Of a DNA stretch of 64,000 bases, positions 7,907-59,201 are shown in pieces. Below the pieces are notes generated by a model. That model was not told the DNA's origin. It ran no database searches and worked only from the letters and a program-made list of their open reading frames with translations. This DNA comes from Macrotis lagotis (lineage: Eukaryota), in assembly GCF_037893015.1 (NCBI RefSeq), contig NC_133658.1, positions 742,210,877 to 742,274,876 of the forward strand, given 5' to 3'. The stretch's first letter is position 1; the number at the start of each line of letters is the position of its first letter. Position numbers and translations under genes: made by a program.

Positions 7907-8129
7907 TCAAACATAAGTTAACAAACTTAAGTCTTCATTATAATTAAGTACTTTGTGAAGAGGAGATCTGGTACTTAATGGCTGAATTCCCAACAGTTGC
8001 TTAGTGGCAAAGTCCCAGTCTTTACCCAACTCAAGTCGAGGGCAAAGAGATGGATATTGTGCTTCTGTTCTTCTTACCCATTTCACTGCTTTCTTTACTG
8101 AATCAAAGCTCCAGGCGCTGGCACAGGAT
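7907..8129 (-). CDS. PARP4: PARP4 terminal coding exon (C-terminal MVP-interaction-type domain), stop codon at 7907..7909
   Basis: acceptor tttattcttag|ATCCTG; translation (A)SCASAWSFDSVKKAVKWVRRTEAQYPSLCPRLELGKDWDFATKQLLGIQPLSTRSPLHKVLNYNEDLSLLTYV*; aligns to human PARP4 C-terminus ...NIPWAFEAIKQASEWVRRTEGQYPSICPRLELGNDWDSATKQLLGLQPISTVSPLHRVLHYSQG*; phase joins previous exon (AG|A = Arg). Confidence 0.85.
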
Positions 8130-8589
8130 CTAAGAATAAATGGAACTGTTAAACCTCAAAATTTAGCTATATAAGAAAATCAGACTTGTGACCAAGCATT
8201 TTACATTAGAAGAAATCAACATAAATGAAAACATTGGGAATACTACTTTCACATTGAATAAAAACAACTAATTCAGGCAAACAGCCAAATTCTTTTGCCT
8301 GTCCTTCATATCCCTTTATAATAACATATTTAAAAACCTTGTCCCTGGCATGGTTCTCATTTTCTACCATCTGTACCACTGCACAGAACATCCTTACAAA
8401 GTCTTTCTATTTCCCCACATCCTACCATCTTTCAAGGCCAAACTTAAATAACACCTCTATTATTCCTTTCCAGATTGTTCTAGTCCATATTGATCTCCTC
8501 CTTTTTCCTGAATTCATACTGCACTTGTAACCAGTAAGTATAACAAGCTTGCACTTAATTTAAGATGGTTTATTAGAGATAAAATATGG

Positions 8590-8780
8590 CTAATGGTAAA
8601 GTATATAACTGGAGTCAGGAAGAGCTGGATTCAAATCCAGCCTCTGAGAATTATTAGCTATGTGACTGTGGGCAAATATTTAATCTCGGAATATCAGATA
8701 GGGTAGCATTCTGTAGCACCTACCTCACAGGGTTGTTGTGACAAATGTATGTCAAATGCTTTATAAACTTTAAAATGTAA
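8590..8780 (+). mobile_element. MIR SINE
   Basis: ...cctcacagggttgttgtgacaaatgtatgtcaaatgctttataaactttaaaatg... = MIR core/3' end. Confidence 0.7.
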
Positions 8781-8884
8781 TAGAAATGTGTTATTATTAT
8801 TATGAAACATTTTATTTTGTTGGTACTCCTTCCCAATTTAGCTGTAGTTTTAACAGAACCAGCTTGGTTTTGAGGTAGATAAAA

Positions 8885-9085
8885 TACTAGGTCTGGAGTG
8901 AAGAAGACCTGTGTGAAATCCTTCCTCAGACACTTATTAGCTGTGTGACTCTGGGTAAGTCACTTTATCTCTGCCTGTCTCAGTTTCCTCATCTGTAAAA
9001 TAAGGTTAATAGCACCTATTTCCCAGGAGGATAAAATGACTTAAGATTTATTAAGCACTTTACAAACTTTAAAACCCTATAAAAT
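8885..9085 (+). mobile_element. MIR-like SINE
   Basis: ...tgtctcagtttcctcatctgtaaaataag...aagcactttacaaactttaaaaccc. Confidence 0.65.
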
Positions 9086-9560
9086 GGCTAGTTATTATTA
9101 CAAGACAAGTGTCCTAGTTTATACCATTTAAAAAAATTTCTGATAGCTTGGCACATATTAGATACCATAAATACTTGTTTATTAAAAACAATTTTAAAAC
9201 TCTAAAACATACTTTAAAAGTTCCCCTTGATTTTGGTTGCTTCAGTTGTTTCTTGCCCTTTGTTATCCAAAACAACCAAAAGAACACCACTAGGGTAGAG
9301 ATAAGTTACAGGTGTCTGACTGTGGCTGAGCAGAACAAAACAAGCTTAGAACGCTTTACGACAGGTCAGGCACAAATAGTGAACATCTGGGGTGGGTTCT
9401 CTAAACTTGAGCCTCTCCCATTTTCATTGAGCTGTTTCAATTCTGCCTTGCTTATAGAGTACAGCACTCTCTCAGATGAAGGCAGTTCTGTGCCAGGGTC
9501 TCCCATAATGCATAATCAATTCCAAATTCTTAATTTTTAAAAAATTTTAAAAAATTTATG

Positions 9561-9687
9561 GCAGCTGGGTTAAGTGACTTGCCCAAGGTCACACAGCCAG
9601 GCAATTGTTGTCTGAGGCTGGATTTGAACCCAGGGCCTCCTGACTCCAGGGTCAGTGCTCTATCCACTAGGCTACCTAGCTGCCCCC
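9561..9687 (-). mobile_element. marsupial tRNA-derived SINE, 5'-truncated
   Basis: ggcagctgggttaagtgacttgcccaaggtcacacagcc...ctagctgcccccc. Confidence 0.8.
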
Positions 9688-9946
9688 CAATTCCAAATTC
9701 TCAAGAGAGACCTTGAAAGTGTCCTTGTATCATTTTTTCCAACCCCTCTCTGAGCACTTGTCCTCTATGAGTTCTCCAAAAAATAGTCTCTTTGGCAAAT
9801 ATACCTTTGGCATTTGAACAATGTGGCCAGCCCACCCAAACTGTGCTCTCTCTAGCAGAGTTTGGATACTTGGTAGTTTAGTTCAAGAAAGGACCTCAGA
9901 ATCTTATCCTGTCAGCTGATCTGAAAAATCTTCCTAAGGCAATTTA

Positions 9947-10110
9947 TTTTTTTTAACTTATTTTTTTGCAAGGCAAATGGGGTTAAGTGACTTGCCCAAG
10001 GCCACACAGCTAGGTAATTATTAAGTGTCTGAGACCGGATTTGAACCCAGGTACTCCTGACTCCAAGGCCAGTGCTTTATCCACTACGCTACCTAGCTGC
10101 CCCCCCCCCC
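9947..10110 (-). mobile_element. marsupial tRNA-derived SINE with TSD
   Basis: polyT + gcaaggcaaatggggttaagtgacttgcccaaggccacacagctaggtaattattaagtgtctgagaccggatttgaaccc...; flanked by AAGGCAATTTA direct repeat. Confidence 0.9.
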
Positions 10111-10139
10111 CAAGGCAATTTAAATGGAAATAATTCAGT

Positions 10140-11160
10140 TTCCTGGCATGGCTGTCCAGATAGACTGGTGGACTATCCAGGTTTCACAGGCAAATAACAA
10201 TGATTACAACATAATGGCCCTGTAGAGCTTCAGTCTGGTAATCAGTCTAATACCTCTTCCATACTTTCCTTCAGAGCCTCCCCAACACTGAGCTAGCTCT
10301 GGCAATATGTGTGTCAATCTCATTTTCAATGTGTATCTCCCTGGAAAGTATACTGCCAAGGTAAGTGAACTTGTCCACAGTATTCAAAATTTATCTATTT
10401 GTTGTAATCAATGGTTTCACATATGGGTTGGGTGGTGCTGAATGATGGAGCACCTGTTTTCTCTTGGCTTTAATTGTTAGGCCAAAATTAGCACAAGTAG
10501 CAGAGGATCAATCCATACTCTGTTGTATCTCAGCTTCAGAGGCTGTACTGAGTATATAATCATCTGTAAACAGAAGATCATGCACCAACACTACCCTCCC
10601 TTTTGGTCTTGGCTTGTAGCCTTTTCAAGTTAAAAGAATTTGCCATTAGTGTGGTAACTGATGTGATGATGTCTTTTGATTCATGCATAAATTGAATTTA
10701 AATGATGCAGAGCTGCATGATGTCATAGGTCTCTCTCTTCCAGAGTCATCATGGTTCAGTGCTAGGAGTCGTCAAGACAACTGGTGACAGCTCTAGATGC
10801 AGTGGATGACTTTGGTGTCTTCAATGTCTAACCAAACTCTAAGCACTCCACAATGTCTGCTTCAGTTGCCTTTATGGCTGTTGGAACAAATTGCTCTTAC
10901 CCATCCATTCCATGAGGGGAAGCCTTCATATGTTTCAGGTAGACACTCCCTAACTCACCAACAAGTTTGAGACCCTCTTGGTTACCCACAACCTAGGATT
11001 GCCTGTCTGATGAAACAGTTTTCCAGGATGTGGCCACTGTGTATGCTATAGATTCTTGCAGTCACAGGTGAGAGTTAGATGGCTCAGGTGGATATCAAAG
11101 GTAGAAAGCAGTCCTCACACTAGAGATACTAGTCTTCCCTGAACACATCCTATACTGCCT
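10140..11160 (-). mobile_element. non-LTR retrotransposon fragment, RTE/BovB-like (or L2-like) RT C-terminal region
   Basis: minus-strand translation ...FGLTINTKKTQVL...VDKFTYLGSILSREIHIENEIDTHIARASSVLGRL.RKVW.R..L.LKTEALQGHYV... = conserved RTE/CR1-clade RT tail; interrupted by stops. Confidence 0.55.
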
Positions 11161-12479: not shown

Positions 12480-13440
12480 TAATTATAGAGCATTTCCTTC
12501 CCCTGCCCCCAAACCTGTTTTGTTATTCAGTGTGTCCAACTCTTTGAGAGTCTATTTGGGTGGTTTTTTTTTTTGTGTTTTTTTTTTGCAGAGGGGGTTG
12601 GTTTTCCATTTTCTTCTACAATTCAATTTGGAGATGAGGAAACTCGAGGCAGAGTTAAATGATTGGTCCAGGGTCACAAAACCAGTAAGTGTCTGAGCTT
12701 GGCCAATCAGGAGCTTGAGTCTTCCTGACTCCAGACCCAGCCCTCTAACTACTGAGTCACTTAGCACCCCAACTTGAAGCATCCTTGCCCATAGAGTGCA
12801 GGTGGAGAGAGTGGACCCAGAAGACACATGTGACCAAACCAGAACTCAGCAAGTGCAGGGTTTGATGCTCCTATTCTCTCTAGGCTTCATGAAGGTCCCT
12901 GAAGGTTCCCCATGGGTTGGGGGGAGGGAAGGAGGCTGGGCAGGCTCCATGCAGGGTCTAGAATTTCAACATGACAGTGATCTCAGTGGGGTTTGCTTCT
13001 CTAGGATACTGTGTTTGGAGCTAAAGCCTCAGCTCATTTTTGATAGGCAGTTCTCATTTCTACCACCCCAGCCTCAGGTTGAGCTTGGGGCTACTGTGCT
13101 TCCTAGCTCGAACACTGCTGCTGTTGTCAGAGATCCTTGGTGGAGGGTCGGATGAAATCTTTTTGGGGTCTCATCTTTGGGGTCTCAGTTCTTCACTTTG
13201 CTTTCATCTCCCACCAGGGAGGAGGGACAGGACACCTTCTCCTATTTGGCAAATCTTCCTATTGCAGAGATCAGGTACTTTGGTGAAGGACTTTGACCCA
13301 CCTAAAGATAATCTGCATCTATGTTTCCCAAATTCCTGGATCTATGCAAATGAATGGTGGGGAACAGTTACCCAGGCTTTTTTGATTTTGGCTTCAAGAT
13401 TAAATCCAGGTTTTTCACTGACAATTGAGTACCTCTGATC
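12480..13440. other. GC-richer unclassified repeat-like block (contains ORFs 12552..12827, 12796..13155, 13040..13438 on both strands); possibly L1 5'UTR-type or other TE remnant
   Basis: local GC jump, overlapping ORFs on both strands with no recognisable domains, lies in the last PARP4 intron, contains MIR-like core 12585..12775. Confidence 0.3.
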
Positions 13441-14819: not shown

Positions 14820-14952
14820 CTGTAAGCAGCTGAATCATCTAATTTCATCAGTGATATGACTGCTACCCCTTCTGACTCCAGCTTAGTTCGAATGAGCTGT
14901 AGTATCAGAAATGTGGCTACCAGCTGTAATACATCTTCTTTTCCCTTGGAAC
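14820..14952 (-). CDS. PARP4: PARP4 exon, C-terminal domain
   Basis: acceptor cttttcttttag|GT, donor ACAG|gtatgg; (G)SKGKEDVLQLVATFLILQLIRTKLESEGVAVISLMKLDDSAAY(R) vs human LGVKGRECLLDLIATMLVLQFIRTRLEKEGIVFKSLMKMDDPSISR; phases join exons at 20271 and 8129. Confidence 0.85.
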
Positions 14953-19882: not shown

Positions 19883-20015
19883 CTAGTTCTATTGTCTCAT
19901 TTTACAACTGAGAGAATTGAAGCCTAGAGAGATGAAGGAATTACTCAAGATCACCCAGGCAGTAGTTGCAAAGAATTTAAATCTAGATTCTTTTAACTTC
20001 ACTGTGCCATGTCTT
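19883..20015 (-). mobile_element. MIR-like relic
   Basis: ...ttttacaactgagagaattgaagcctagagagatgaagg... Confidence 0.45.
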
Positions 20016-20270
20016 CTCCCCAACTAAGGGCTTCTAGTTCAAGAGACAAAATTTTGAAGCTGTATCAAAATCTCCCACCTATCAATACAATCAGGATATC
20101 AACCATGTTAATCCTTTGATTAATCTCAAAGTATTTAACCATTTAAAGGTTTGAAAGGTAAGCACAAAAATATGTTTATTCTGAATGCAGAACATCAAAA
20201 AAAATTCCTCTATAGTTAACATAAACATAATTATTTCATTTGATGAATAATAGAAAGAAACTGAGTTTAC

Positions 20271-20370
20271 CTAGAGATTGAATGCCTTTTTGCACAAGAA
20301 AGATTTTTAAATTATTCACATTGAGGTTTAAAATGAGCCCAAGTTTAAGGTTAAGATTCCAAAAGCCTTC
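20271..20370 (-). CDS. PARP4: PARP4 exon, C-terminal domain
   Basis: acceptor ttttcccttaattttacag|GAAGGC, donor CTAG|gtaaac; EGFWNLNLKLGLILNLNVNNLKIFLVQKGIQSL(G) vs human EDGFWKLTPELGLILNLNTNGLHSFLKQKGIQSLG. Confidence 0.85.
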
Positions 20371-20717
20371 CTGTAAAATTAAGGGAAAAATAATGACAAT
20401 TAGAATTTCATCTCATAATAAAAAAAGTGTTGAATCGTATATATTTTAATTCATTCATTTCATATTTTAATTCAATCAAGATTTTTTTTAAAAAATTGTA
20501 TTTCTATGGTATTAAAATGCATGAATTCAATAAATTTCACTAATGAAAATATGATACCACACTGTAATTTTTTAATAACATAAAACTTAAAACTCTTTCA
20601 TAACTCATTATTAATAAAAAGGTAGGTCAGCAGTAAAGTTTGCTTAATGAACCTGAATTATAAAGAATTTTAGGTATATCAATATTTATACTGAAAACTA
20701 TATGTCAATTCAAGAAC

Positions 20718-20718
<1 letters not shown>

Positions 20719-20749
<31 letters not shown>

Positions 20750-20750
20750 T
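20719..20750. repeat. (TA)n microsatellite
   Basis: direct read. Confidence 0.9.
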
Positions 20751-20970
20751 TTAGAATTTCTGTCTCTTTCAAAAACTTATTTAGGAACAAAATATCAGCC
20801 TAGAGCTTCAGAAATGATGCCTTATTTCATGGCAGTTGCAATGATCCTAGTTTTTCCTTAAGAGCAACAACAATGTTCACTAGCACAGTATGTTGAGCAG
20901 CTGGGCCAGGCAGTTACTAGCAGAGATGGCACAGAGGAAAGGCAGATACCTCATTCTGAAGACTAAAAAC

Positions 20971-21051
20971 CTGAGCCCAAAACACCAAATTATCTTTAAT
21001 GCTTTTCAACCAACTCTCTCTGTCAGTTCCATCAGTCTGGTGTTTTTGTGT
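20971..21051 (-). CDS. PARP4: PARP4 exon (27 codons) between the proline-rich exon and the GFW exon
   Basis: acceptor ctttatctttgcctttcag|ACACAA, donor CTCAG|gttttt, phase 0-0; TQKHQTDGTDRESWLKSIKDNLVFWAQ vs human ..CTQHWQDAVPWTELLSLQT.. (weaker similarity). Confidence 0.55.
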
Positions 21052-21138
21052 CTGAAAGGCAAAGATAAAGGCAATAAAAGAACTGCATGGTTATACACAT
21101 TTTATTCAAGTCTATGTTTCCAAAACATGTTGCCTTAC

Positions 21139-22635
21139 CTTAGCAATTGATGGAGTCATATCCTGTGCTAAAGAACACTCCTGGGTGAGAATTGAAAAAG
21201 CTTCATTCACTACTTCTGATTGAGTATCTCTAGATGGAGAAAATGGAGGCTGATAGGCCTGTGGCAGTTGTTCATTATTGTTCCTTCCAAACATACGTCT
21301 GTGACTTGATGCAGGCCCTTGCATTTTTTTCTCACATATTGATGGGCGGATTCCACAAGCAACATCAGAAAGGGGGGCAAATTTCCTACCTATCCTAGAT
21401 CTTGGAAATGTAAGTAAGTTTAACTGAGACCTAGAGCCAAACAGGCCAGAATTAGGAAGAGGAGAAGGAGGAGGAAGAGAAGAAGAAGGAGAAAGAGAAA
21501 GAGAAGAGACAGTAATAGGACAAGGGGGAAAAGAAGAGACAGGAAGAGGAGGGGGAGGAAGAAGAGAGCTAGAAATGCCAGAAAAAGGACAAGGAGGAAG
21601 AGAGTCAGGAAGAAGAGATGAGGAATGTTCAGCGAGAGGAGAACAAGGAGGAGAAGGAGGAATAGAGGGAGAAGAGTATGCAAGAGGGGCATGAGAAGGA
21701 GGAGGAAGAGAGAGAGAAGAGCCAGCAGGAGGAGGAGGAGGAAGAGAAGAACCAGCAAGAGGAAAAGGAGGAAGAGAGGGAGGAGAGCCAGCAAGAGGAG
21801 GAGGAGGAGGAGGAAGAAGAGAAGAGCCTGCAAGAGGAGGAGGAGGAGAAGGAAGAGAAGAGCCTGCAAGAGGAAGAGGAGGAGGAGGAGGAGGAAGAGG
21901 AGAGGGAGAAGAGGAGCCAGTACCACAACAAGGAGTTAGGGAAGCTTTATGAAGATGAGAAGAAAGAGAACTTTTACCAAAAAGATAAGAAATTGGAGGT
22001 GGAGGTGGAGGTGGAGGTGGAGGACGAGGACCAGTAGAGCCCAAATCACCTCCAGATAGTTGGCCTAAATGAGGAGGAAAAGAGGAATTTGCAGAAAGAA
22101 AACTAGAAGTAAGTACAGTACCAGGGGATGAGGCAAAGCCTGAACTATAAGGAGAAAAGGAGGATTTGGAAATGAAAGAACTAGCCAGAGGAAGAGGAGG
22201 GGGTGGAGAAGGAACTGGACAGGAAAAAACGAAAGGGGTCATATGGTTTGAAACCTGTTTTTTATGTTTTTTAAATAAAACTGTTGTGTTTGAAACTTCC
22301 TCAGCTACATCTGGTACCATGGCATAGTCACCCAGGGTAGAAGCAAGGGTGAGTCTTTTTGGTAATGCATCAGAGGAAAACTCTAAAAAATCAACTGGTG
22401 GAGTAGAACTGAGTTTCATCATAGGAGAATCTGATGCTGGGAAGTCCTTAACTGTCTGTGAGAGCCTAATTTCTTTTTTTGACCTGCCCTGGAAAGGATG
22501 TTGTGCTGAATGTTTCCCTAAAGTAGCAATATCTGAAAAAGCAGCATTTCCTGATTCTACTGTAATAGCAGCTGTATTTCTAAAAACTTTATAATTCATT
22601 CTTCTGGCAGATTTCTGTAGAACCTGTGGCATTTC
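21139..22635 (-). CDS. PARP4: PARP4 giant exon (1,497 nt, 499 codons, phase 0-0): proline/serine/leucine-rich low-complexity region with tandem PPPPPPLAGSSL-type repeats and runs of up to 10 Pro
   Basis: acceptor ttccttttcttcag|GAAATG, donor GCTAAG|gtaagg, open frame throughout (ORF 21112..22668); N-terminal part (..KSARRMNYKVF..TVLFKKHKKQVS..) and C-terminal part (..SRDTQSEVVNEAFSILTQECS..) resemble human PARP4 region ..LSKRKHRKIPFSKRK..EPLFKKVSPWE.. and ..SSDTESDELSEVLQDSCFLQ..; central part is a ~33-36-nt GGAGGA-rich tandem repeat. Confidence 0.85.
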
Positions 22636-22689
22636 CTGAAGAAAAGGAATAAACAGAACAAAATACAAAATATCAGTCTTTTAAGCAGT

Positions 22690-24930
22690 TGAACAACCAT
22701 GTCCTCTACAAAGAACATCTGAAAGAAGTGACTTTCAAATAACCTAAATTAAGACAACAGGCAGCAAAACCACAAGGTACATAAGATAGAATTCAATCCT
22801 TGTAATAAAACTATATGAATAAGACATTAAGAATTTCCTTATTGTTTACTCCAGTAACTCTTTGGATCTTTTCCCCAGTTTTCCACTTTAACTTTTTATT
22901 TCTCTGCAAACTCTTTAATTTCAAGTAATCAAAATTGTCTATTTTATCTCCTATTATCCTCCTCTTTTTTGACTACTTATCCATAAATCTGACAGATAAT
23001 TTTTCCAAGCTCCTCTAATTTGTTTACATTACTTTTTATGTCTAAATCATGTACTCATTTTGAGCTTATCTTGGTATGTAGTAATATAATGTAATATTTG
23101 TCCTTCATTTTTGAAGACTACCACGACAAGCACATGAATTGGATTTGAGTGAGGGGATGCTGTGCTAAGTCACAAACCTCACTTCCTCCTTCAGAGCCAT
23201 TTGGGTCCAGAGACCAGATATGAATTGAGACAACTGGAAATGGTCCTGGATGTGAGGCAGTGAGGGTTAAATGACTTGTCCAAAGTCACACAGATGGTAA
23301 GTATCCAGTGTCTGAAACTGGATTCGAGCTCATGTCTTCCTGATTCCAAAGTCAGTGCTCCAAATCTGCCCATAACTCTGGTAAGAGATATTAGTCTATG
23401 CTTATGATTGTTTTTCAATTTTTCCAGAAGTTTCTGTTGAATAGTGAGCTATGCCCCAATAGCTTGGATCTTTGGGTTTATTAAACATTGGTTACTGTGG
23501 TCACATTTCTGTCTTTTGTATAACTAATCTGTTCCACTGATCAACACTGATCTCTTAACCAGTACCAGACTGTTTTGATTATTATTTGTAGTACAATTTG
23601 AGATCTGACAGTGCTAGGCATCTTTCTTAGAGTGATATTTTTGACCTTATGTTCCTCCATATGAATTTAACTATTTTTTTTTCTAGCTGTATAAGAAAAT
23701 TTTTTTGGTAGTTTGATATTCTATTAATAAGGCACTGAATAATCAGATTAATTTAGAAACTACTGTCATTTTTATTATATTGGCTAAGTTTGTCCATGAG
23801 CAATTAAGTATATATATATATATATATGTATTTATAAATGCTTATGATTTATATGGGTTTATTTTATATCTTGCAACATTGTCAAAGTTGTTAATTGTTT
23901 CAACTAGTCTTTTAGTTGATTCATTAAGTAGATCATCATAATTTTCCAAGAGAGATAATTTTGCTTCATCATTATCTATTCTTATTTCTTCAATTTTTTT
24001 TTCTGGACTTAACTGGGATAGCTAACATTTCTAATACACTATTGAATGATAATGGCCATCCTAACTTCACCCTGATCTTATTGAAAAGGCTTCTAGTTTA
24101 TCTCTTTAAAGCTGCTAGCTCTTGATTTCGCATAGATTCTAGTAATCATTTTGAGAGAAGTCATTTATTTCTATGCTTTATAGTGTTTTTAATAGGAATG
24201 GTGTTGTTTTTGTCAAAAGGTTTTTCAGCACCTAAGGAAAGAAGCATATAATTTGTTTTGCTTTTTTTAATCCTAGTATTGAATCACCTTGAATTTCTAA
24301 TGTAAAACCAAGCCAGTTATAGTGTATGATCTTTGTGATATATTACTCTAGTTCTCCTTCTAATATATTGTTTAAAATGTTTATATTGATATTCATTAGG
24401 GAAACTGACTTAAAGTCTTTCTTTGATTTTGCTCTCCCTGAGTTATGTTATCAAAACCACATTTGTGTCATAGAAACAATTTGGTAGGATTCCTTTACTC
24501 ATTTTTCCCAAAAGGGTTGTATAGTATTGGAATTAGTCATTCATTAAACATTTGATAAAATTCACTTGTAAATCCTACTGATCCTGGGAACTATTTCTTA
24601 GGAAGCTCATTTATGGCTTGTTCAATTCCTATTCTAAGATGAAATATTTAAGTACTAGATTTCTTCTTCTGTTAATCTGGTTTATATTAATATATTTATC
24701 CATTTCATTTAGATTTTCAGTTTTATTTATTTTTATTATTATTTTAGATTGTATTTCTCCAGTTATTTAGTTCTGTATTTATGTTAAAAGTGTTACATAG
24801 TCCATATAGTTTAATAATTAAGTTATAAAGTTCCTGTGATGACTTAGCAAGTCGACTAAAGTATTTCACATTCTCTTCAAGTATTTTAAGTGTAATTTCC
24901 TTTCTAATGTTTCCTGCTGAGTTTTACAGG
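22690..24930 (-). mobile_element. L1 fragment (ORF2 region), minus orientation, with MIR-like piece at about 23215..23400
   Basis: minus-strand translation ..KIDNFDYLKLKSFCRNKKLKWKTGEKIQR.. resembles L1 ORF2p ..KLDFIKIKNFCSAKDTVKRMKRQATDWEKIF..; plus strand shows the typical L1 antisense T-rich texture. Confidence 0.7.
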
Positions 24931-24934
24931 TCTT

Positions 24935-25030
24935 ACATTCAAATCTGGCCTCAGACACTTAATAATTACCTAGCTGTGTGGCCTTGAGCAAGCCACTTAA
25001 CCCATTGCCTTGCAAAAAAAAACCCCAAAA
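24935..25030 (+). mobile_element. marsupial tRNA-derived SINE, 3' half
   Basis: ..caaatctggcctcagacacttaataattacctagctgtgtggccttgagcaagccacttaaccc.. + A-tail. Confidence 0.75.
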
Positions 25031-25129
25031 ACTTTAAAAAAAAAAGACTGACTTCTGACCACTACTTCCTTTAAAATAAAACTCAAAACAACTCTAAGGT
25101 TTTACCACACATCCTAAAAATTGACAAAG

Positions 25130-25640
25130 ATGATAAAAATGCATATAGTCAACACTGGAGGGATTATAAAATGATAGGCATATTATTACCTTTTTGGTGA
25201 AGCTATGAAACCATAATCAGGTTGAAAAACAATTTGGAATTATGCAAGTAAAGTGACTAAAATATCCATATCCTTTGAACTAGAGACTCCATTATTAGGT
25301 TTATAATCCAAAGAAACCATCAATTAGAGGAAAAAAAGCCCCCATATACACCAAAATATTTATAGCAGTTGTTTTTGTGACAGAAAAGGATTGGAAACAA
25401 ACTAGATGCCCATCATTTGGGCATCCAGTTAATCAAATCACGGCATATGAATATAATGGAATAATTCATAAGAAATTATGTATCTGACAAATACAGAGAA
25501 TCTTGGAAAGATCTTCATGAACTAATGCTGTGTGATGAAGTAAGCAGTGTCACAAAAACAATATACACAATAACTACAACCATGTAAATCAAAGAACAAC
25601 TATACATTGAATGAATGTCACAAGCAGAAATTTATTTAAT
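25130..25640 (+). mobile_element. L1 ORF2 C-terminal fragment
   Basis: plus translation of ORF2 tail type (..KPHIHQNIYSSCFCDRKGLETN.MPIIWASS.SNHGI.I.WNNS..). Confidence 0.6.
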
Positions 25641-25645
25641 GGTGC

Positions 25646-25688
25646 ATGTGTGTGTGTGTGTATGTATGTTGTGTGTGTATGTGTGTAT
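25646..25688. repeat. (GT)n imperfect microsatellite
   Basis: direct read. Confidence 0.85.
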
Positions 25689-27135
25689 AGCATCACTGGA
25701 CCTGTGCTCTGGGAAAATCACTTTGGCAGTCAAAGGAAAGATGGATTGAAGTGAAGCAGGCAGACGCATCAGCAGTATATTGCAAGATTCAAGGTTTGAA
25801 GTGAGGAGGACCTGCACGAACCAGAGTGGTGGCAGTGTCAGAGGACAGAAGGAGGGTTATTTGATACATGTTGCAAAGGTGAAACCAACAGGCCTTGACA
25901 ACAGCTTGGATATGTAGGGGTGAGAGGGAGTAAGGGGGCTTGGATAACTCCTAGATAGTGAGCCTAAGGGACTGGAAAATGGTGTTGCCCTCTAAAATAA
26001 CAAGGAAGGTAAAGAGGTAGAGAGGGTTTAGGGGAAAGATAATGAACTCTGTTTTGGACATATCACATTTACAATATCCATTGAACAACTAGTTCAAGTT
26101 GGCTGAAAGGCAGTTAGAAATGCAAAAATGTAGTTCAGTAGAAAAGCTAGGGCAGGAAAGGTAGATTTGAAAATCATCAGTAAAGAATGGTAAGTAAATC
26201 CTTGGGAGGTGACAGATCACTAAGAAAAGTGCTACAAAAGGAGGAGGAAGAAGGTTGAACCTTGAGGGACACTTATAATTAGAGGGTGTGATTTGGAGGA
26301 GGATCCAGCAAAGAAAACTGGTGTGTGTCAGGTCTAACCAAATGAGAAAATGTTCACCTGGGTGGAAGACATTGCTCCTCTTTACAGAGGAGGCTAGAGA
26401 TCAAGCAAGAGACAATATGAAATGGAATATACTTGATAGATAGTCAGATGGGAGGCCCGATTTCACCACTCCACTCCAAAGTCTGGGATACCATTGTATT
26501 TATCTGTATCCTCTATACCAGGAAGTAATCATAACACTTTCATATTGTTATTTCAATGGTTCACACAAATATGCATATATATGTAATACATATACATATA
26601 TGCATAAAATATGTGTTTGTCGAAGTTCTTTGAAGGTGGGAACTGTTCTCATTTTTTCATCATTTAAAGCATCTGGCAAAGTTCAATGTATAGAAGAGGT
26701 TCTCAGGAGACAGTGACTGAATTGAATGGAGGATGTGGTCTATGTAAAAGCAAAGCTGTGCTATTTTCATTGTTGCAAAGAATTAAAAATTGAAAGGGGG
26801 AGCCTTTCAGTTAGGAAATGGCTAAACAAAGCTGTGGTGGATATTTGTATTATAATGTTCTTGTGCTATAGGATATGAAAAAGAGATGGTTTTAGAAAAA
26901 CCTAGAAAGACATTTTATTATTTGATGCAAAGTGAAGTGCACAGAACCAGAAAAACTGATACAATAACAACCATATTATAAAGACAGACAACTTTTAAAG
27001 ATTAGGAACTCTGATCAATACAATGGAACCAACCTCATGATGAAGTTCACCTATCTAGATAGAAAGGGGAAGGATTTAGGATGCAAATTGAAGCGTTCTT
27101 TTTGGATATGGTTAAGACAGGAATTTGTAGGGTGG

Positions 27136-27293
27136 GAGGCTAGGTGGCACAGTGGATAAAGCACTGGCCCTGGAGTCAGTAGTACCTGGGTTCAAATCTG
27201 GTCTCAGACATTTAATAATTACCTAGCTGTGTGGCCTTGGGCAAGCCACTTAACCCCATTTGCCTTGCAAAAACCTCAAAAAAACAAAAAAAA
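27136..27293 (+). mobile_element. marsupial tRNA-derived SINE, young insertion with 14-bp TSD
   Basis: gggaggctaggtggcacagtggataaagcactggccctggagtcag...; AGACAGGAATTTGT directly flanks both ends. Confidence 0.9.
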
Positions 27294-27562
27294 AGACAGG
27301 AATTTGTTTTGTTTGGATATATATTTATAATAATTTTTGGTTTTGCTTTATCAATAGTTAGGGGAGAGAAAGATGCTGGGAGAAAAATTTGAAACTAAAA
27401 ACAAAACTGAATTTTAAAAAAAGTAATGTGGTGGGAAAAGGACACAATTTGTGTGTGCATGCACATATGTGCACGCTGCATTAATTAACTTGGTTCAAGA
27501 AGAAAAATAATTATTTAACATAAAGGCAATATCATGAAGCTCTTTTTTGTATTAAGACTTAC

Positions 27563-27697
27563 TCTGGCTTGCATACTCTGGCTTGCATACTCTGGTTGTT
27601 CCAACTCCCAATCCATGTATGGCAGAAAGTCTATGTCTTCTGTGGTGATAAATTCCAAAATATTTGGAGTATGGGGATCCAGTGATTCATTGCCATC
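27563..27697 (-). CDS. PARP4: PARP4 acidic exon (45 codons)
   Basis: acceptor ttttttattcag|GATGGC, donor CCAGA|gtaagt, phase 0-0; DGNESLDPHTPNILEFITTEDIDFLPYMDWELEQPEYASQSMQAR vs human DENESPFPDIPKVSELIAKEDVDFLPYMSWQGEPQEA. Confidence 0.85.
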
Positions 27698-27879
27698 CTG
27701 AATAAAAAACAAGTGAAATTAGAACTGATTTTTATAATAAAGCTTTCATGATTCCACTGTCAGAACACACAAGATAATAATTCTCAAATTGGGAATACTA
27801 GTAGATTTAAGAAGATAATATCACCATCTAAAATGGAAGCTAATCTTCTCTGAGGTACCACCTCACACCTCTCAGACTG

Positions 27880-29473: not shown

Positions 29474-29522
29474 CCTGTCTAGATCAGAGAAAGACCTTGC
29501 CCTGTGGTCTTTTCCTGTATTG
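29474..29522 (-). CDS. PARP4: candidate small PARP4 exon (49 nt)
   Basis: acceptor cttcttcttaaaag|CAATAC; translation (x)NTGKDHRARSFSDLDR loosely matches human ..TTGTMIHKLAARALIRD..; donor gtcctt is weak. Confidence 0.3.
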
Positions 29523-38900: not shown

Positions 38901-39244
38901 AATCTTACAGTTCCAGTTGTTTTCTGTAGTTCAGTAGTTGATACCATTGTGTCAAATTCTCTGTCTTGAATTAAAGCATTTAGGATGGCCTGAAGGACAT
39001 TAAAAAAAGAGATATCTGATTACTTTTTTCCTACTTCACATTCCCAACCTCTTAGCCACTAATCACTTTAGCAGTGATTATCTCAATGATTAACAATTAA
39101 CAATCCTCTAGTGAAGATAGAGGCAGAAACACTTTCCCTTAGTTGGAAAACATATTCAGCAAAGGGTAGGATTTAAAAGCAAGTTATGAATTAGTTGGAT
39201 AAGATTCAGATATACAACTTATGCTTCTTTGGATCAATTCTGAC

Positions 39245-39415
39245 CTGTGTACAATGAGGAATGAATCCATACACAAGCAGTCTATCATTGTTAAATAAGG
39301 CCTGGATTTGTGTGGGAGCCTGCAGGGGCTCAGGTGAATTTAGATTCAGTTGTTGCCATTTGACAGATATAGAGCTGCATCCTGGAGAAAATACTCTTGT
39401 CATTTGGTCTTCAAT
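39245..39415 (-). CDS. PARP4: PARP4 exon (57 codons), post-vWA region
   Basis: acceptor ttttttctttgtaaacag|ATTGAA, donor CACAG|gtcaga, phase 0-0; IEDQMTRVFSPGCSSISVKWQQLNLNSPEPLQAPTQIQALFNNDRLLVYGFIPHCTQ vs human IEDQMTRLCSPSCHSVSVKWQQLNPDVPEALQAPAQVPSLFLNDRLLVYGFIPHCTQ. Confidence 0.9.
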
Positions 39416-41404: not shown

Positions 41405-41504
41405 CTGTTTTTTCCAACTATATTTAGATTTTGTATTAAAGTATTCAAATGCTCCAGCACCATACTGGGACAAAGCCCTCAGGATATGACGATTTGCTGT
41501 GGAC
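41405..41504 (-). CDS. PARP4: PARP4 exon, C-terminal part of vWA domain
   Basis: acceptor tttgatcag|GTCC, donor AAACAG|gtaagt; (G)STANRHILRALSQYGAGAFEYFNTKSKYSWKKQ vs human STANRHVLRILSQCGAGVFEYFNAKSKHSWRKQ. Confidence 0.9.
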
Positions 41505-42345: not shown

Positions 42346-42897
42346 ATTTCTTTACTTTTTGGAAGATATCTGTGAAAACCATCAATTTTTATCCTAATTC
42401 CCTAAATTTCAGTCCTGTGCCACCAACTGCCTGTTGGTCATCCATCCTTGGATTTCCTATTTACAAAATGATTTTTCTTGCACTTACCCAATGCCACATG
42501 TAAATAGGCGGGTATGTCTAACATTTCTTTTTACAATCTGCAATGTCAGGGATTCATTCTGGATATGCCCATCAGATATAAGAAGTATGTTGCGCATCCC
42601 TTGAGAAGGGTAAAGTAAGTTTAAAAAGTGCAGGGTTTTCCAGAAGTCGGTATTTCCCATAGTAGGTGTAGCAGACTGGAAAAAATTAAAAGAAAGTGGA
42701 TTTTATTCACCTTTGTAAACTTGCTTAAATGTTTCTTCTTTTAAGCATGTTCCCTTCTTTAGAGAGAGACCTCTTATTTTTTCACTGAATAATGTTTGCT
42801 GATATATCTGCTACTGTACTTACTATCATTCCATTTCTGTACTTTGAATTTATAAAAAAAGAATCCTCATATTTCCTTTTAGATAACTAGAAAACAG

Positions 42898-43282: not shown

Positions 43283-43441
43283 TTTTTTTTTAGGTTTTTT
43301 TTTTTGCAAGGCAAATGGGGTTAAGTGGCTCGCCTAAGGCCACACAGCTAGGTAATTGTTAAGTGTCTGAGACCGGATTTGAACCCAGATACTCCTGACT
43401 CCAGGGCCGGTGCTTTATCCACTACGCCACCTAGCCGCCCC
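43283..43441 (-). mobile_element. marsupial tRNA-derived SINE
   Basis: polyT + gcaaggcaaatggggttaagtggctcgcctaaggccacacagctaggtaattgttaagtgtctgagaccgg...; flank CTACTACTTT repeated. Confidence 0.88.
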
Positions 43442-44129: not shown

Positions 44130-44197
44130 TTTTACTTACCATAATGAACTCTCTCAGTTTAGGATTATTTATGAAGTACCGAGGATATAAAAATAAT
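44130..44197 (-). CDS. PARP4: PARP4 exon, vWA domain
   Basis: acceptor cattacacag|GT, donor ATTATG|gtaagt; (S)YTELFLYPRYFINNPKLREFIM vs human (G)YKELFSYPKHITSNTMAAEFIM; phase joins exon at 46763. Confidence 0.85.
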
Positions 44198-44549
44198 TCT
44201 GTATAACCTGTGTAATGAAATTAGTTTGAAACTTTTGTTAAATAATTATTTCAGTAACTTCTAGCACAGTTCAATTATATGGTTCTAGTTTTGTCATTTA
44301 AAAGTATCTTACATATTTGTTTATATACATTTATTTGATTGGATCTCACATTTAGAAAATTTTATATACATATATGGCATGAGGGCCTGTAGGTATGTGT
44401 ACAGAGGACCCATGGAGATCTGGTGAATCTGTTTCTAGAAATTCGTGATGATTTGGGGCTGAGCAAGAACTGGGAGATCATACAAAAAACCCTAAGACAA
44501 AAATTCATTTGTTTCCTTCCCACTGGCCTTGAGACATAGGGATGAGCCA

Positions 44550-45400
44550 TTCGTGGGGGGGTAGGGGGGAGATGTCCTTTTCTCTTCAGACTTCTATAGC
44601 AAGTCTCTTTCTGGGATGGGCTATTTCTTGTTTATTTTTCCTATCCATTGGTACAGGACTTTTTTGAGATTCTGAAAGGACCAGAGGTCTAGTGACAGAC
44701 TGCCCTATCCAAGTGTGCTGGCCCTGAGCTGGGCACCAACTCTGTCCTGAGGAACAACAAGCCTCAATCCAGTGGCAAATGTAAACATCCTGCAGGGAGG
44801 CTTTCCCTGCAACCCAACCCGAGCTGAAGGGTCCAGCTGGTCTTATCTTGAAGTAGTTGCCTCATTCTACCTAGACATGCATTCAGCAATAGCAGCTACC
44901 ATTTCTAGTGGGAAGCCAGCACAGACACCAGGTAACTTCACAACTAATCCCAGCAGAAGACTGAAGGGAGGTGATTCCACCTCCACTGAGCTGCTGGTGC
45001 CTCTGGGAAGGGACCAATCCCTCGTTCACCTCCTGGCCCACCCGCCACAAACCCTGAGAATGCCCTCCAGCAAGAAGACAGGCTCCAGAGGTCCAGATCA
45101 TGTTTTCAAATCATGTTACTCTTTTTCTCTTCTCCCCAAATTCTGGATAAAGTTGTGGAACAAGGTGTCCCCAATATGGGCTTTGTAATGATTGTCTTTG
45201 TGACGTCATTTGACTAAAGAACTGAGTCCAGTGGCTAGCTGTTTAAGGGAGAATCCACCAGGGGAGGCACTCTGAAGGCAGAGAAGGAGGCTCTCTGCCC
45301 AGAGGGGGTTCCTCCTTGAATCCTAAAGTATTAGGGTACAACCCTGTGGAGTTCCAACCTGCCAGAACCTGTGTGAATTGAGCAAGTGAGACTTTAGAGG
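44550..45400 (+). other. unclassified GC-richer element, possibly solo LTR or other TE remnant (hosts spurious ORF 44772..45188)
   Basis: abrupt composition change; contains perfect CRE palindrome TGACGTCA at about 45203..45210 and ..gcattaaaaaa just before a (GA)n tract; no splice-consistent coding. Confidence 0.3.
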
Positions 45401-45409
45401 CATTAAAAA

Positions 45410-45414
45410 AGTAT

Positions 45415-45469
<55 letters not shown>

Positions 45470-45810
45470 TGTTTATGTGTATGTGTGTGTATGTGTATAT
45501 AACAGAGAGATAGAGAGACAAAGATACAGAGAGTATGTGAGTGTGTGTATGTGAGAGTGTGTGACAGAGTGAGTGTGTGTCTGTGTGACAGAGAGATAGA
45601 GCATGTGTGTATGTATGACAGAGTATGTGTGTGTGACAGAGAGAATGTGTGTATGTGCATGTGACAGAATGTGTGTATTTGTGACAGAGAGAAATATAGT
45701 GTGTGTATGTGACAGAGAGAGCGATACAGAAAGGGAGTGTTGTGAGTGTATCTATGTGAGAGAGAGGTGGGGTGTGTGTGTGAGACAGAGAGAAATAAAT
45801 TAGGGGGTGG
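45410..45810. repeat. compound (GA)n then imperfect (GT)n/GACAGAGAGA satellite-like repeat
   Basis: (GA)~25 followed by repeated gtgtgt...gacagagaga units; ends with ..gacagagagagcgatacagaaagggag.. which recurs at 50778..50808; source of fake ORFs 45243..45813. Confidence 0.85.
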
Positions 45811-46762
45811 CAAAAGGATTCACCCTAGGATCCTTTCAATAAACAATTTTGTCAACACATTTATACCACAAAATCACTAATTTAGAATTATTTTGTAAAA
45901 CAAGATGTTTTAATGTTAAGTTTAAATGGCTCATTATGTTTCTGTTAAAGTAGTAGGACCCCCACTTCCCCCTCTGATCCTCCTCACTGCTCAGATTACT
46001 TGGCAAACACTAAGGCACAGGAGAAACTACAGGAACTCTGCCTCTTTCAAAGGAATGGGTATACAGATTGATGGAGCATAGAATTCCACTCTCTACTGGT
46101 CCATGCTGCTTGCCTCCTCTATAAAGTTTGTACCTGATCCTCTTTTTCTTATGACTCTTTTTTCACCATCCCCACCTGGTGTAGGCGATCTGGTTACAAA
46201 TCTTTTAATAGCATATGTTCCTCAAATAAAACTACAACTTCACGGTGTCCAGAGGTTGTTAACCTTTTTTTGGTCACACACCTGTATGGTATAGATTTTT
46301 GAAGAAATCTATGGAGCACTTCTTTGAATAATGTCTTTATATAATGGAAGGAAAAACTAAATTTAAATTAAAAATTAGTGAAAACAAAAATGTGATTTTT
46401 CTTTTTCCCATTTTTCATAGATCATCAAATTTATCCATGGACTCCAGATTAAAATTCCCTGTGGCATAGACCCAGAGAATCCCAGGGCTGGAAGAGATCA
46501 TGGTAGTCCTCTTGGACCTGAACCTGGACAGGAGTGTTCTTTATAATATACTCCATTCATGTTTCTAGTTAAGAGCTCCAATAGCAAGAACCCCCACTAT
46601 CTCTTGAGGTAGCACACTACACTTTCTGATGACTCTAATACTTGGGCAATTTTTCCCTTGTGAATTTACTTGTCAAGATAATTCATATCCTTACTTTTTA
46701 TTATTTTTACCTTTTTAATTTTAGAAAATCAAACTGTCAGAGCCTAAAATAACAAAACTTAC

Positions 46763-46958
46763 TTGTGCCAAATTTGATGATGTTTACTTTTTGCTTCTCA
46801 TGGACAAGCGACAGAGCATGTAAGGCAATTTGCTTTGCTTGCAGTAATTCTGAGCCCTCCATAGAATTGGAGCAATCCAAACAAATAATTACTTCACTTG
46901 TATGGACCTCCTCTGGTAGTATATTACTGAAATCTGGATGGAAGACAAGCATGCAGGC
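46763..46958 (-). CDS. PARP4: PARP4 exon, N-terminal part of vWA domain with MIDAS motif D-C-S-N-S
   Basis: acceptor ccctcttccttctag|GCCTGC, donor GGCACAA|gtaagt; ACMLVFHPDFSNILPEEVHTSEVIICLDCSNSMEGSELLQAKQIALHALSLVHEKQKVNIIKFGT vs human ACMLVFQPDLDVDLPDLASESEVIICLDCSSSMEGVTFLQAKQIALHALSLVGEKQKVNIIQFGT. Confidence 0.92.
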
Positions 46959-54381: not shown

Positions 54382-54519
54382 CTCACTTTTCTTGTTTGGG
54401 TGCTTTTCAACCCACATTCTTGGAAGATAAGCCTCTCCTATATGGATCTGGAGAGAGAAGCCTCTGTTGTCTAAAGAACTGTCATCCAAAGTGCTGATTA
54501 CAGCTTTGCAGTCTGTTTT
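54382..54519 (-). CDS. PARP4: PARP4 exon (46 codons), VIT-vWA linker
   Basis: acceptor ttttgctatatag|AAAACA, donor AGTGAG|gtaatt, phase 0-0; KTDCKAVISTLDDSSLDNRGFSLQIHIGEAYLPRMWVEKHPNKKSE vs human RTDCKAVISTMEGSSLDSSGFSLHIGLSAAYLPRMWVEKHPEKESE. Confidence 0.92.
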
Positions 54520-55184: not shown

Positions 55185-55262
55185 CTTAATTTTGAGTTTA
55201 TGCGTATCACTGGTAATAAACTCAATTATATGTGGCATCTCAATTGATATATTTAAAGAAAA
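55185..55262 (-). CDS. PARP4: PARP4 exon, VIT-vWA linker; 3' end firm, 5' boundary uncertain (could extend to about 55290)
   Basis: donor ATTAAG|gtatgtc; ..FSLNISIEMPHIIEFITSDTHKLKIK vs human ..SFSLTMSIEMPYVIEFIFSDTHELKQK; the upstream human residues DTVEKICIKEIGTKQ are not found in frame (stop about 25 codons upstream). Confidence 0.7.
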
Positions 55263-55687
55263 TCTATCAAATATGAAAAAAAGAATCTCAATTTAATATT
55301 CAGACATTAATTTCCTTTATATACTCTTCATATAAAACAAAATAACCTTTAAGTTGTCCCTCAGATTTGATATACTAACTACTAATGCTCTTCAAATTTA
55401 CCTAGCATTAATTTTGAATAAATTTATATGTGAAGTTGTCTTAGTGTAAGCTCCTTAAGGGGGAAGGACAATTTCCTTTTGATCTTAGTATCCCCAAAAG
55501 GCAGTACTTAGCCCCTACTAGTTGTTTAATAAATGCTTGTGACCTGAACATCCAATTTGAATGTACAATCTCCTAAACCATTACAAAAATCTTCATTACT
55601 CCTCAGAAGGCTCATCAGCTAAGTCGCCATCTCCTTTGCAGAATTCCCTCTATCTGAATGTATTCTCTCCTTTTCTTTTCCTTTTTT

Positions 55688-55834: not shown

Positions 55835-56796
55835 CATGTATTCTCTCTTAAAGTTTTGCTAGGACAACTCTGGAGTTTTTCTTTGCTCCTATAACACGCT
55901 GCCTTGTATTAAATATTTATGTGTCTACCCTGAATTTCAAATGGAACTTTAAAATGTGAAACCCTTGCCCATGAAAGTCAGACTGAAATATGAAGTTTTA
56001 TTTCTATTTTAGGTACTTACTGTTGTTGCATTCCTACTTCCTTAACACAAACTTTCTGCACTGTATCCTGCCAAAAATAAGAATATTATCATGTATTTCA
56101 GGGTGGATCTAATATAACTACTGAAATATAAAGGAAATGTGAGGCCACTGAATATACTCACAACAAGTAAATTTCTGGCAACATAAATAATGCTGTTAGT
56201 TTTCAACTATACCCAAATGCAAACATTTCCATGGTATGCAAATGTCATGTATTTTTACTTTGTGCAATAAGAGTCACTTTCAATTCAATTAATCTTTGAG
56301 TCTTATATTCAGAAAAGTTAATGAAATACAACTAATGGCCAGTGTTTAATGGAGAGATTATCTTGTGCTAAACACTTAATAATTATCTCATTTGATCCTC
56401 ACAACTTCTTTGGGAGTTAGGTGCTTTAATTATCTCCATTCTACAGACAAAGAAAATTATGTGAATAGGCTAAGTGACTGGAAGAGTATCATATAACTAC
56501 TAAGTATCTCTGAACAGATTTAGAATGAGGTCTTTCTGACTCCTAACTCTATCTGATACTCTCTCTGCTGGGTCATTCTAGCAACCTCTAATATCTACGG
56601 ATAATCAAAAGAGGACAGCTGAAAACAATTTTTCCCCATTTTTTCCATTAGCATATATACTAAATACTGTTATCTTTAGGAAACATTATCTATTTATTCC
56701 AAGGACATCAGATGACTTTTCATTTAAATTAATTAATTTAATTTAAAACGATAACTCTAAAAATATCAATTAAAATGTAATATTAAATACACAAAC

Positions 56797-56961
56797 CTGC
56801 AAGTTTTCATTTAAAGCTTTGTCTTGTTGCCATGGTGCAACAGTAGCAGGCATGAAGAAGTTGGCACATCCACGATAAAAACTGAGCTCAGTGATATAGG
56901 TAATTTTGATAAGAACTTTGGCTTGTGGTGGTAAGTTTCCAATGCTCACAGTAAAGACATC
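56797..56961 (-). CDS. PARP4: PARP4 exon (55 codons), C-terminal half of VIT domain
   Basis: acceptor ttcccatttcag|GATGTC, donor TTGCAG|gtttgt, phase 0-0; DVFTVSIGNLPPQAKVLIKITYITELSFYRGCANFFMPATVAPWQQDKALNENLQ vs human DVFTVSVGNLPPKAKVLIKITYITELSILGTVGVFFMPATVAPWQQDKALNENLQ. Confidence 0.93.
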
Positions 56962-58711
56962 CTGAAATGGGAACAGCATTCACTTTACACATATAAAACC
57001 TATCTAGTCCAAGTTCATCATTTAATGTTCTACATTAATAACTAATCCAAATAAAGACATTATGCTTAGCTTCTGGAAAACTTCTAGGAAAATGGGGATT
57101 GTTTTTAAGCTTATTTTGAAGATTCACAATTTTGCTTAGGTTGGCACTCCTTTCATGAATTCAAACTTTGATATTTCTATGGCTTAGTAGATGAATTACT
57201 ATAGCCAAAAAAAATTCATCACTTGCCAATGTAGTGTTAAGCCTTTCTGCATGAAGTCTTTCTAGCTTGGTAGGACTTGCCAAAATTTCTATTCTAGTAA
57301 TATGACTGTCTTAATCCTTATAATTTTTTAGCCTCAATCAAGACCTTGTCCTGAATCTTGGTGAACTCACTTACTGTATTTTCTTTTTAAATGAAGAAAA
57401 GGACCTATTAATCCAAACTGGACAGTTTGAATCTTGCCTAATATTCTTCACATCCAAAGTTTCCAACCAGTTGAACAATGTTTATTCTATCTGAGAAGCT
57501 GATGAAAATATATTCCCACTACCACAAAACACAGATTAAAGGAAGATTATCCTTTATCTTTAGGTATAATTCACCTCTCCAAAATTCTGGTGCAGTTGAG
57601 GAGTCTGCTCCTCAAGTCAAAAATTCACTGAATTTCATCCTTTTAGCCATAGACTATAATTATTTTGTGTTTCTAGTGACCATGTCTTTTGTGTACTCCT
57701 CTTTTAAAAGTATGAACTTTTTATGAACAAGACCAAAAATTTCACCCCCATTAAAGAACTGGATTTATTGCCCTGTTGAGCTAAGACCAACATACACTGT
57801 CAATGTTGATGGAGTAATGCAATCTCAATTTCCAAAGAAAAGGTGGGTTTTGTATTTTGCCTCTATAAGTGTTTTGATCACACATCTGAGAATGATTAAA
57901 TATCCCAGAATGTAGCAATTTGGAAAAGAAAATATAAAGATTCTCATCTTCTAACTATTTTGTCTGGCTTATCATCATCTGTTTACTAGATACTTTTAGT
58001 CCAGATCAGTGACCTCTTTGGACAATTTAGACAAACTCTCTTAATAGAACCAGATAGGAAACTCATATGTCAACTACTGTCTTCATGGCTCACCTAAGGG
58101 CACTAAGAGGTGAAGTCACTTTTCCACGAGCTCTCAGAAGTAGTATGTGCCAGAAGCAGCCCTTGAACTCAGGTCTTCCTAACTACAAGGCCAGCTCTCT
58201 TTCCACTTTTCACTACCTTTCAGAAACTTGATTATTAGAAAATTACTTCTTCCATACTCAGATTTCCTGTTTGTTTTTCACCCATTCTTCTTACCATAAA
58301 GTAACATTAATAGACATAAGGGAGGAGTAGCATTCATTCTAATTTCAATTAACACTAGAATTGTAATCATAAAGTTGCATGGTCCTTTAACAAAAACATA
58401 TTTCTTTTAGTTTTAGCTTTCCAATAATACCATTTTGCTACTATCTTAATATAACTCTTAATAACAAAAGAAATTCATTATTTTCAGAGACTACATTAGG
58501 CAACCAGCACAAATCCGCAGAAGACATACCAAAGAACACTAGACATGCAAAACTCTTAGGCAAGGTTTCTCTCTGATAATACAAAACAGAGGGTTTTGTT
58601 CAAATATTCTAAATTTTTACTTCATAATAGTATTATATTTTTAATGAATTTAAAACTTTTTTCCATTTCTGATTAATATAGTAGAGAAACAAATTAATAG
58701 CAATGTCATAC

Positions 58712-58798
58712 AGGACTATCCTGATCCATCAAGTAGGCTCCATGGCCTTGACTAATAGCTTCTCTGTACTCCTGATGGGCTTCTTCCTTTTCCTTGAC
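58712..58798 (-). CDS. PARP4: PARP4 exon (29 codons), VIT domain
   Basis: acceptor gctcttttccag|GTCAAG, donor AGTCCT|gtatga, phase 0-0; VKEKEEAHQEYREAISQGHGAYLMDQDSP vs human IKEKEEAQQEYLEAVTQGHGAYLMSQDAP. Confidence 0.92.
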
Positions 58799-59069
58799 CT
58801 GGAAAAGAGCATTTTAAAATGTTATGCGATATGTGGTGACTTCATTATTTCATGCAGGAGAGCTAATAATTCAAACTCAAATCCTAGGAATGATCATTTC
58901 AGAAATAAAAAAAGAATCTGGAAAATTTTTTTTTAAAGAAACTGAAATAAATGTAAATTTGAAAAGTAGCCAATATGTGTAAAATCACTATTCAGAAACC
59001 CATTACACCAGATAAATAAAAAAGGGTGTATCTGCAGAGGAAGCAGAAAAAATAAGTATACAATGATAT

Positions 59070-59201
59070 TATTCTTTACCTCTCCTATTATATGCTTGCC
59101 ATTGATGAAAGCTTCAAATCCACACACAGCAGCTTTGTCATCCAAGGGAAAGACATATTTTGTTTCAATAGGCATATGACTTATATTGGTATAAGTTTGA
59201 A
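59070..59201 (-). CDS. PARP4: PARP4 exon (44 codons), N-terminal part of VIT domain
   Basis: acceptor tctatttccag|ATCATT, donor GGAGAG|gtaaag, phase 0-0; IIVFQTYTNISHMPIETKYVFPLDDKAAVCGFEAFINGKHIIGE vs human VIVFQTYTNKSHVPIEAKYIFPLDDKAAVCGFEAFINGKHIVGE. Confidence 0.93.

Follow-up and report, generated by a model that had tools for sequence, protein, structure and literature searches.

We analysed a 64,000-nucleotide (nt) stretch of Macrotis lagotis DNA (contig NC_133658.1, positions 742,210,877 to 742,274,876 of the forward strand; hereafter the window, numbered from its first letter), which is AT-rich with a G+C content of 35.6%. The 3′ two-thirds of an intact gene for the vault poly(ADP-ribose) polymerase PARP4 (vault PARP, VPARP) almost certainly lie on its minus strand, from 59211 to 7907. 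The gene is described here by a 20-exon minus-strand model spanning 59211–7907, with a 3819-nt coding sequence that is free of internal stop codons, encodes 1272 residues and ends with a TGA at 7907–7909. All 19 introns have GT–AG termini and the phases chain throughout; most of the donors are strong and of the GTAAGT type, and the acceptors are pyrimidine-rich. The gene enters the window within the VIT domain, at 59211.

Exons and domains of the gene

The first query was a rough 433-residue concatenate of the obvious exon pieces, which matches VIT and vWA in Pfam and has 78 relatives in a database of 5.8 billion proteins. All named relatives are annotated as PARP4 or 'poly [ADP-ribose] polymerase 4', VWA5A, VWA5B and ITIH names are absent from the 78, and PF26156, the PARP4 MVP-ID C-terminal domain, is carried by relatives found in this search. 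A query with the C-terminal half was swamped by proline-rich low-complexity words and returned one match, a fragment annotated solely with PF26156. Fifteen partial PARP4 orthologues, drawn from mammals, birds, reptiles, amphibians, fishes and a shark, were compared with the window by tblastn; their matches fall on the minus strand in strictly collinear order between 59223 and 7934, the lowest E value being 6e-29. Three short exons, near 56070, 20985 and 20391, came to light at low stringency. For each adjacent exon pair, GT or GC donors and AG acceptors were enumerated and the in-frame joins were scored against the orthologues, with ambiguous boundaries settled by direct inspection. Other junctions (for example, a GC donor at 27569, acceptors at 22677 and 22614, and weak acceptors at 21013–21019) were dropped, having either a lower orthologue score or a broken frame.

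The complete model was compared by phmmer with the human PARP4 chain of PDB entries 11jf, 9bw6 and 9bw7 (1724 residues; we take the human protein to be UniProt Q9UKK3), and scores 1193 bits (E = 0). Model residues 1–600 correspond to human residues 639–1239 at 1006 bits, with 74.3% identity over 599 positions and gaps of one residue only. A wrong junction would give an insertion or deletion, and this near-gapless alignment thus validates the first 15 splice junctions independently. A second block, model residues 1108–1264, corresponds to human 1569–1723 (206 bits, 62.3% identity over 154 positions). Used as tblastn queries against the window, the human segments from these alignments gave 16 collinear exon matches.

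The first three exons encode most of the VIT domain; Pfam family PF08487 scores 114.7 bits over model residues 3–95 and is covered from profile position 19 to its end at 111. Exon 1 (59080–59211, residues 1–44, phase 0) corresponds to human PARP4 from residue 639 and is bounded by the acceptor ttgttctatttccag/ATC and the donor GAG/gtaaag, the slash marking the exon edge; in tblastn it is 72–82% identical to six orthologues. It is followed by exon 2 (58712–58798, residues 45–73) and by exon 3 (56797–56961, residues 74–128), which contains DVFTVSIGNLPPQAKVLIKITYITEL… and the end of the domain. Exon 4 (56021–56067) is a 47-nt mini-exon encoding DTVQKVCVKEVGMQQ; it was detected solely at low stringency and its junction was set by join scoring, and the human alignment runs across it without a gap. 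Exons 5 (55185–55263, residues 144–170) and 6 (54382–54519, residues 171–216) lead to the vWA domain, for which PF00092 (VWA), PF13768 and PF13519 match model residues 238–391 (VWA, VWA_2, VWA_3). This domain begins in exon 7 (46763–46958, residues 217–282), where the DxSxS motif of the metal ion-dependent adhesion site (MIDAS) is present as DCSNS at model residues 244–248, continues through exons 8 (44140–44207, residues 282–304) and 9 (42488–42675, residues 305–367), and ends in exon 10 (41405–41504, residues 367–400), which contains STANRHILRALSQYGAGAFEYFN. The ITIH-like region proceeds with exon 11 (39245–39415, residues 401–457), and is followed by exons 12 (38909–38989, residues 458–484), 13 (34250–34330, residues 485–511), 14 (32621–32716, residues 512–543; 94% identity to human) and 15 (27563–27697, residues 544–588).

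Beyond the large exon 16 (21139–22635), four small exons complete the gene and encode the MVP-interaction (MINT/MVPID) domain. It starts in exon 17 (20950–21051, residues 1088–1121, …VFWAQVFSLQNE; acceptor ctttatctttgcctttcag/ACA), and continues through exon 18 (20271–20370, residues 1122–1155) and exon 19 (14820–14952, residues 1155–1199) into the terminal coding exon 20 (7907–8129, residues 1199–1272 and the TGA). The first candidate poly(A) signal after the stop codon, a motif match to AATAAA on the same strand, is at 7754–7759, 147 nt downstream, and further candidate AATAAA motifs are at 7568–7563 and 7526–7521, 338 and 380 nt past the stop codon.

A sequence-only reading of this DNA had proposed PARP4 on the minus strand, running from the VIT domain at 59201 to the stop codon at 7907, and the model confirms it with small corrections. 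Its terminal exon at 7907–8129 is recovered with the correct phase, between the acceptor ttccatttattcttag/ATC at 8129 and the TGA at 7907–7909, and the chaining of phases that it noted for groups of exons extends to all 20. The lower end of its span is exact, whereas the upper end lies 10 nt inside the true exon edge at 59211; similarly, VIT is indeed present, but the window starts inside the domain, at profile position 19 of 111. Eleven of the 12 peptides it quoted have exact minus-strand matches in the order given, between 56961 and 7988 (among them DVFTVSIGNL… at 56884–56961, EVIICLDCSNSMEG at 46854–46895, STANRH at 41486–41503, IEDQMTRV at 39392–39415, and WVRRTE, CPRLELG and ATKQLLG within 7988–8080). 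The exception is 'VSVKWQQLN', which reads ISVKWQQLN here, the V being the human residue.

The C-terminal domain is informative both for identity and for function. In human PARP4, residues 1570–1724 form a helical domain (MVPID) that is without homology to other human proteins (Suskiewicz et al., NAR 2023, PMC10450202), and the presence of this PARP4-specific domain at 206 bits excludes a VWA5A, VWA5B or ITIH identity. Residues S1614, K1618, Q1682 and R1689 of the human protein contact MVP in the 2025 vault–PARP4 cryo-electron microscopy structure, and an S1614A/K1618A double mutation abolishes binding (PMC12280208). All four contact residues are identical in the model, as S1153 (codon 20277–20275, minus strand, exon 18), K1157 (14947–14945, exon 19), Q1223 (8059–8057, exon 20) and R1230 (8038–8036, exon 20). 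Homology with human PARP4 predicts vault binding and enzymatic function: the encoded protein would dock to MVP repeat domains 3–5 inside the vault cage through electrostatic contacts of MINT, and a flexible linker would let the ITIH-like and catalytic parts extend into the vault lumen. A mammal outside the eutherians thus keeps the vault-anchoring interface that was structurally defined in human in 2025.

The large exon 16 and neighbouring splice junctions

Exon 16 (minus strand, 1497 nt, residues 589–1087; acceptor ttccttttcttcag/GAA, donor AAG/gtaagg) is the divergent part of the gene. Model residues ~601–1107, nearly all of them from this exon, are unalignable with human PARP4, and the exon aligns with the human sequence over its first dozen or so residues at most. 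Its product is 19.8% proline and 18.8% serine (39% together), and presumably forms a disordered Pro/Ser-rich linker. The reading frame is open over a 522-codon stretch around the exon, whereas 30 shuffled versions of the window averaged 129 codons and never exceeded 154. An exact-sequence lookup of the exon 16 open reading frame gave no record. Within it, in-frame tandem repeats at 21648–21899 have periods of 36, 75 and 111 nt and encode four LAGS-anchored proline-rich units of ~12 residues each, typically LAGSSLPPPPPP.

In PARP4, a ~360-residue disordered region comes wholly from one exon, the largest of the gene (exon 30 in human), and this region is under positive selection, with sequence and length that are 'highly variable among vertebrates' (Daugherty et al., PLoS Genet 2014, PMC4038475). 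Values of dN/dS above 1 have been reported for primates and bats. Exon 16 is the counterpart of human 'exon 30', and its divergence lies within the published variability. From one conserved anchor (EDxDFLPY) to the other (GFWxL), the linker spans 552 residues here, compared with 376 in human and with 381, 218 and 190 in fragments from one fish, one snake and one shark, and is the longest of those compared (human, fish, snake and shark fragments). One interpretation, which we judge to be evenly poised between right and wrong, is that exon 16 carries a lineage-specific in-frame expansion in which the four LAGS-anchored units, together with other poly-proline tracts, gave rise to the 552-residue disordered linker. 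The rapidly evolving exon has been proposed as a pathogen-recognition surface (Daugherty et al., PMC4038475); should that be so, the exon seen here would encode an exceptionally long version of such a surface, rich in proline, and would also give PARP4 a longer tether within the vault. The expanded proline-rich exon is one more case of the known length variability of this PARP4 exon.

The tandem repeats of exon 16, which are purine-rich on the plus strand, are open in several frames on both strands at 21423–22034. The Leu-, Ser-, Arg- and Glu-rich open reading frames of 105–171 residues at these positions were rejected as genes and are low-complexity artefacts.

The junctions on either side of this exon have peculiarities. 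A perfect 14-nt tandem duplication (CCAGAGTATGCAAG twice, minus strand, 27595–27568) at the 3′ end of exon 15 abuts its donor and generates two GT donors, GTATGC after 27577, which would shift the frame, and a distal GTAAGT after 27563. The distal donor was chosen: it alone keeps the frame, and the alignment with human PARP4 continues through the junction. The intron between exons 16 and 17 is unusually short at 87 nt (21138–21052), with boundaries AAG/gtaagg after 21139 and tttgcctttcag/ACA at 21051; the open frame from exon 16 ends at 21115, with an in-frame stop at 21112–21114.

Placement, repeats and the remainder of the window

Over the same conserved segment, identity is 78% between the window and human, 76% between the window and camel, 83% between human and camel, and 69% between the window and gecko. 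Judged from these sequence identities, the gene would be placed outside the eutherians, yet nearer to mammals than to sauropsids. The window also contains ~28 copies of a short interspersed nuclear element (SINE) of ~160 base pairs (bp) each (29 BLAST high-scoring segment pairs, 76–97% identical), examples of which are at 2535–2691, 3441–3598, 9881–10200, 43284–43441 and 59523–59663. Each has a head resembling a tRNA, followed by a truncated CORE (…GGGCAAGTCACTTAACC…) and a poly(A) tail, and all copies are intronic or intergenic, with no exon overlap. The sequence probably resembles the opossum SINE, and together with the identities above the repeats point to a marsupial as the likely source. 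Two marsupial short-CORE SINEs, SINE1_Mdo and WSINE1, have been described with this layout (PMC3403934); a search of the literature and supplements for the family gave this description of the architecture and no sequence match. At 30604–30890, two adjacent SINE copies score as a 160-bp tandem.

No Rfam families and no tRNAs (ARAGORN) were found in the whole window. CpG depletion is extreme, with 161 CpG against ~2022 expected across 1–64000 (observed/expected 0.08); no 300-bp segment of 1–64000 qualifies as a CpG island, and there is no promoter-type island for another gene. Pfam searches of long open reading frames outside the gene, including L1-like ones, gave no other protein-coding signal among those tested. 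The open stretches at 1768–2049 (minus strand), 28073–28345 (plus) and 61666–61821 (minus) contain …IFIAALFVVAKNWK..CPSIGEWL.KLWY… and have no Pfam match; this may resemble the C-terminal part of ORF2 of LINE-1 (long interspersed nuclear element 1). Two regions that are locally more G+C-rich, 12778–13435 (plus strand) and 44365–45185 (both strands), contain open frames of 90–145 residues and may be old repeats; the open frames at 12778–13152 and 44751–45185, both on the plus strand, have no Pfam match.

Other features of the window are a 68-bp unit present twice at 36360–36496 with 98% identity, a TG/TC-rich low-complexity block of ~580 bp at 45246–45824, and a (TC)41 microsatellite at 61790–61872, upstream of the modelled exons. 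At 20001–32000, across introns 14–15 and exon 16, plus-strand GC skew is positive throughout (+0.135 to +0.165 in 4-kb windows), contrary to the transcription-coupled asymmetry expected of a minus-strand gene, and is possibly due to oriented repeat insertions together with the GA-rich exon 16.

Gene assignment and comparison with known proteins

Several observations weigh against the assignment to an intact PARP4 gene, or limit it. Exon splicing is predicted from the genomic sequence, and the boundaries of the 87-nt intron are the weak point of the model: they rest solely on splice signals and reading frame, and the orthologues do not align there. At the 5′ side, the first 18 VIT profile positions are encoded outside the window and the human alignment starts at residue 639. 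An exon for the preceding ~30 VIT residues (…AGLQD…VPLE.VHI.GRIIDFVAQ) was not found in 59212–64000, where the best Smith–Waterman score for the VIT-start exon was 33, compared with 30–37 for shuffles, and where low-stringency tblastn was also empty. The BRCT, WGR, HD and ART exons, of which nothing was detected in 59212–64000, are predicted to lie upstream of the window, and it is the C-terminal part of the full PARP4 architecture that is seen here. In the orthologues P0040, P0048, P0069 and P0074, the PARP catalytic domain PF00644 lies directly upstream of the sequence that matches exon 1, which supports this prediction indirectly.

Pfam alone sees VIT and vWA, which are common to the VWA5 and ITIH families, and the runner-up PDB chain for the model is ITIH4, so that a VIT-plus-vWA paralogue (VWA5A, VWA5B1/2 or an ITIH heavy chain) has to be considered in place of PARP4. 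We regard this as extremely improbable. ITIH4 reaches 32.6 bits where PARP4 reaches 1193, Pfam finds no ITIH C-terminal domain in the full model, no VWA5 or ITIH name occurs among the 78 relatives, and the C-terminal 155 residues match, at 206 bits, the MINT/MVPID domain that is found only in PARP4 (PMC10450202). The sequence-only reading had likewise held VWA5A and VWA5B to be far less similar and to differ in their C-terminal layout, and its assignment to PARP4 on the minus strand is upheld by the human match, the names of the relatives and the presence of MINT; in a comparison of the kind it had suggested, tblastn with PARP4 sequences, the matches are collinear, and the best protein matches are to PARP4 rather than to VWA5A, VWA5B1 or ITIH.

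A non-functional PARP4 copy, either a duplicated or a unitary pseudogene, is also very unlikely, if a little less so than a paralogue. The gene is read from genomic sequence alone with its N-terminal half beyond the window, and both the highly divergent, repeat-expanded exon 16 and the 14-nt duplication at the exon 15 donor could be taken as signs of decay. However, the exon to which the divergence is limited is known to evolve rapidly where PARP4 is functional (PMC4038475), each of its repeat periods (36, 75 and 111 nt) is divisible by three, and the duplication still leaves exon 15 a strong GTAAGT donor in frame. None of the 20 exons is interrupted by a stop codon, splice sites are canonical and phases correct throughout, the MIDAS motif is retained along with all four residues that contact MVP, and the presence of introns shows that this is not a processed copy. 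An intact PARP4 gene is therefore the preferred reading. The locus is what one would expect for the orthologue of this known and well-studied gene; the value is chiefly one of annotation, as a clean model in which 20 exons cover the last 1272 residues of PARP4.

The closest comparison is with human PARP4, which has the same domain order as here, with VIT, vWA and the rest of the ITIH-like region followed by a disordered linker from the large exon and then by MINT. The MIDAS motif and the MVP contacts S1614, K1618, Q1682 and R1689 of the human protein are also kept. The human gene, which we take to have 34 exons in total, likewise has its largest exon followed by four small ones, which fits exon 30. 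The differences are that the linker here is longer, unalignable and contains proline-rich tandem units, that the C-terminus is ~8 residues longer (model 1265–1272, DLSLLTYV, the alignment ending at human residue 1723 of 1724), and that the N-terminal 638 residues of the human protein fall outside the window. With ITIH1–4 the protein has in common the VIT and vWA core fold, and the central region of PARP4 has been called 'ITIH-like' (PMC10450202); the match to ITIH4 is nevertheless weak, and MINT stands in place of the ITIH C-terminal domain. VWA5A and VWA5B consist of VIT plus vWA, and are without the long linker and MINT, so that they are set apart from the protein described here by architecture rather than by pairwise alignment.

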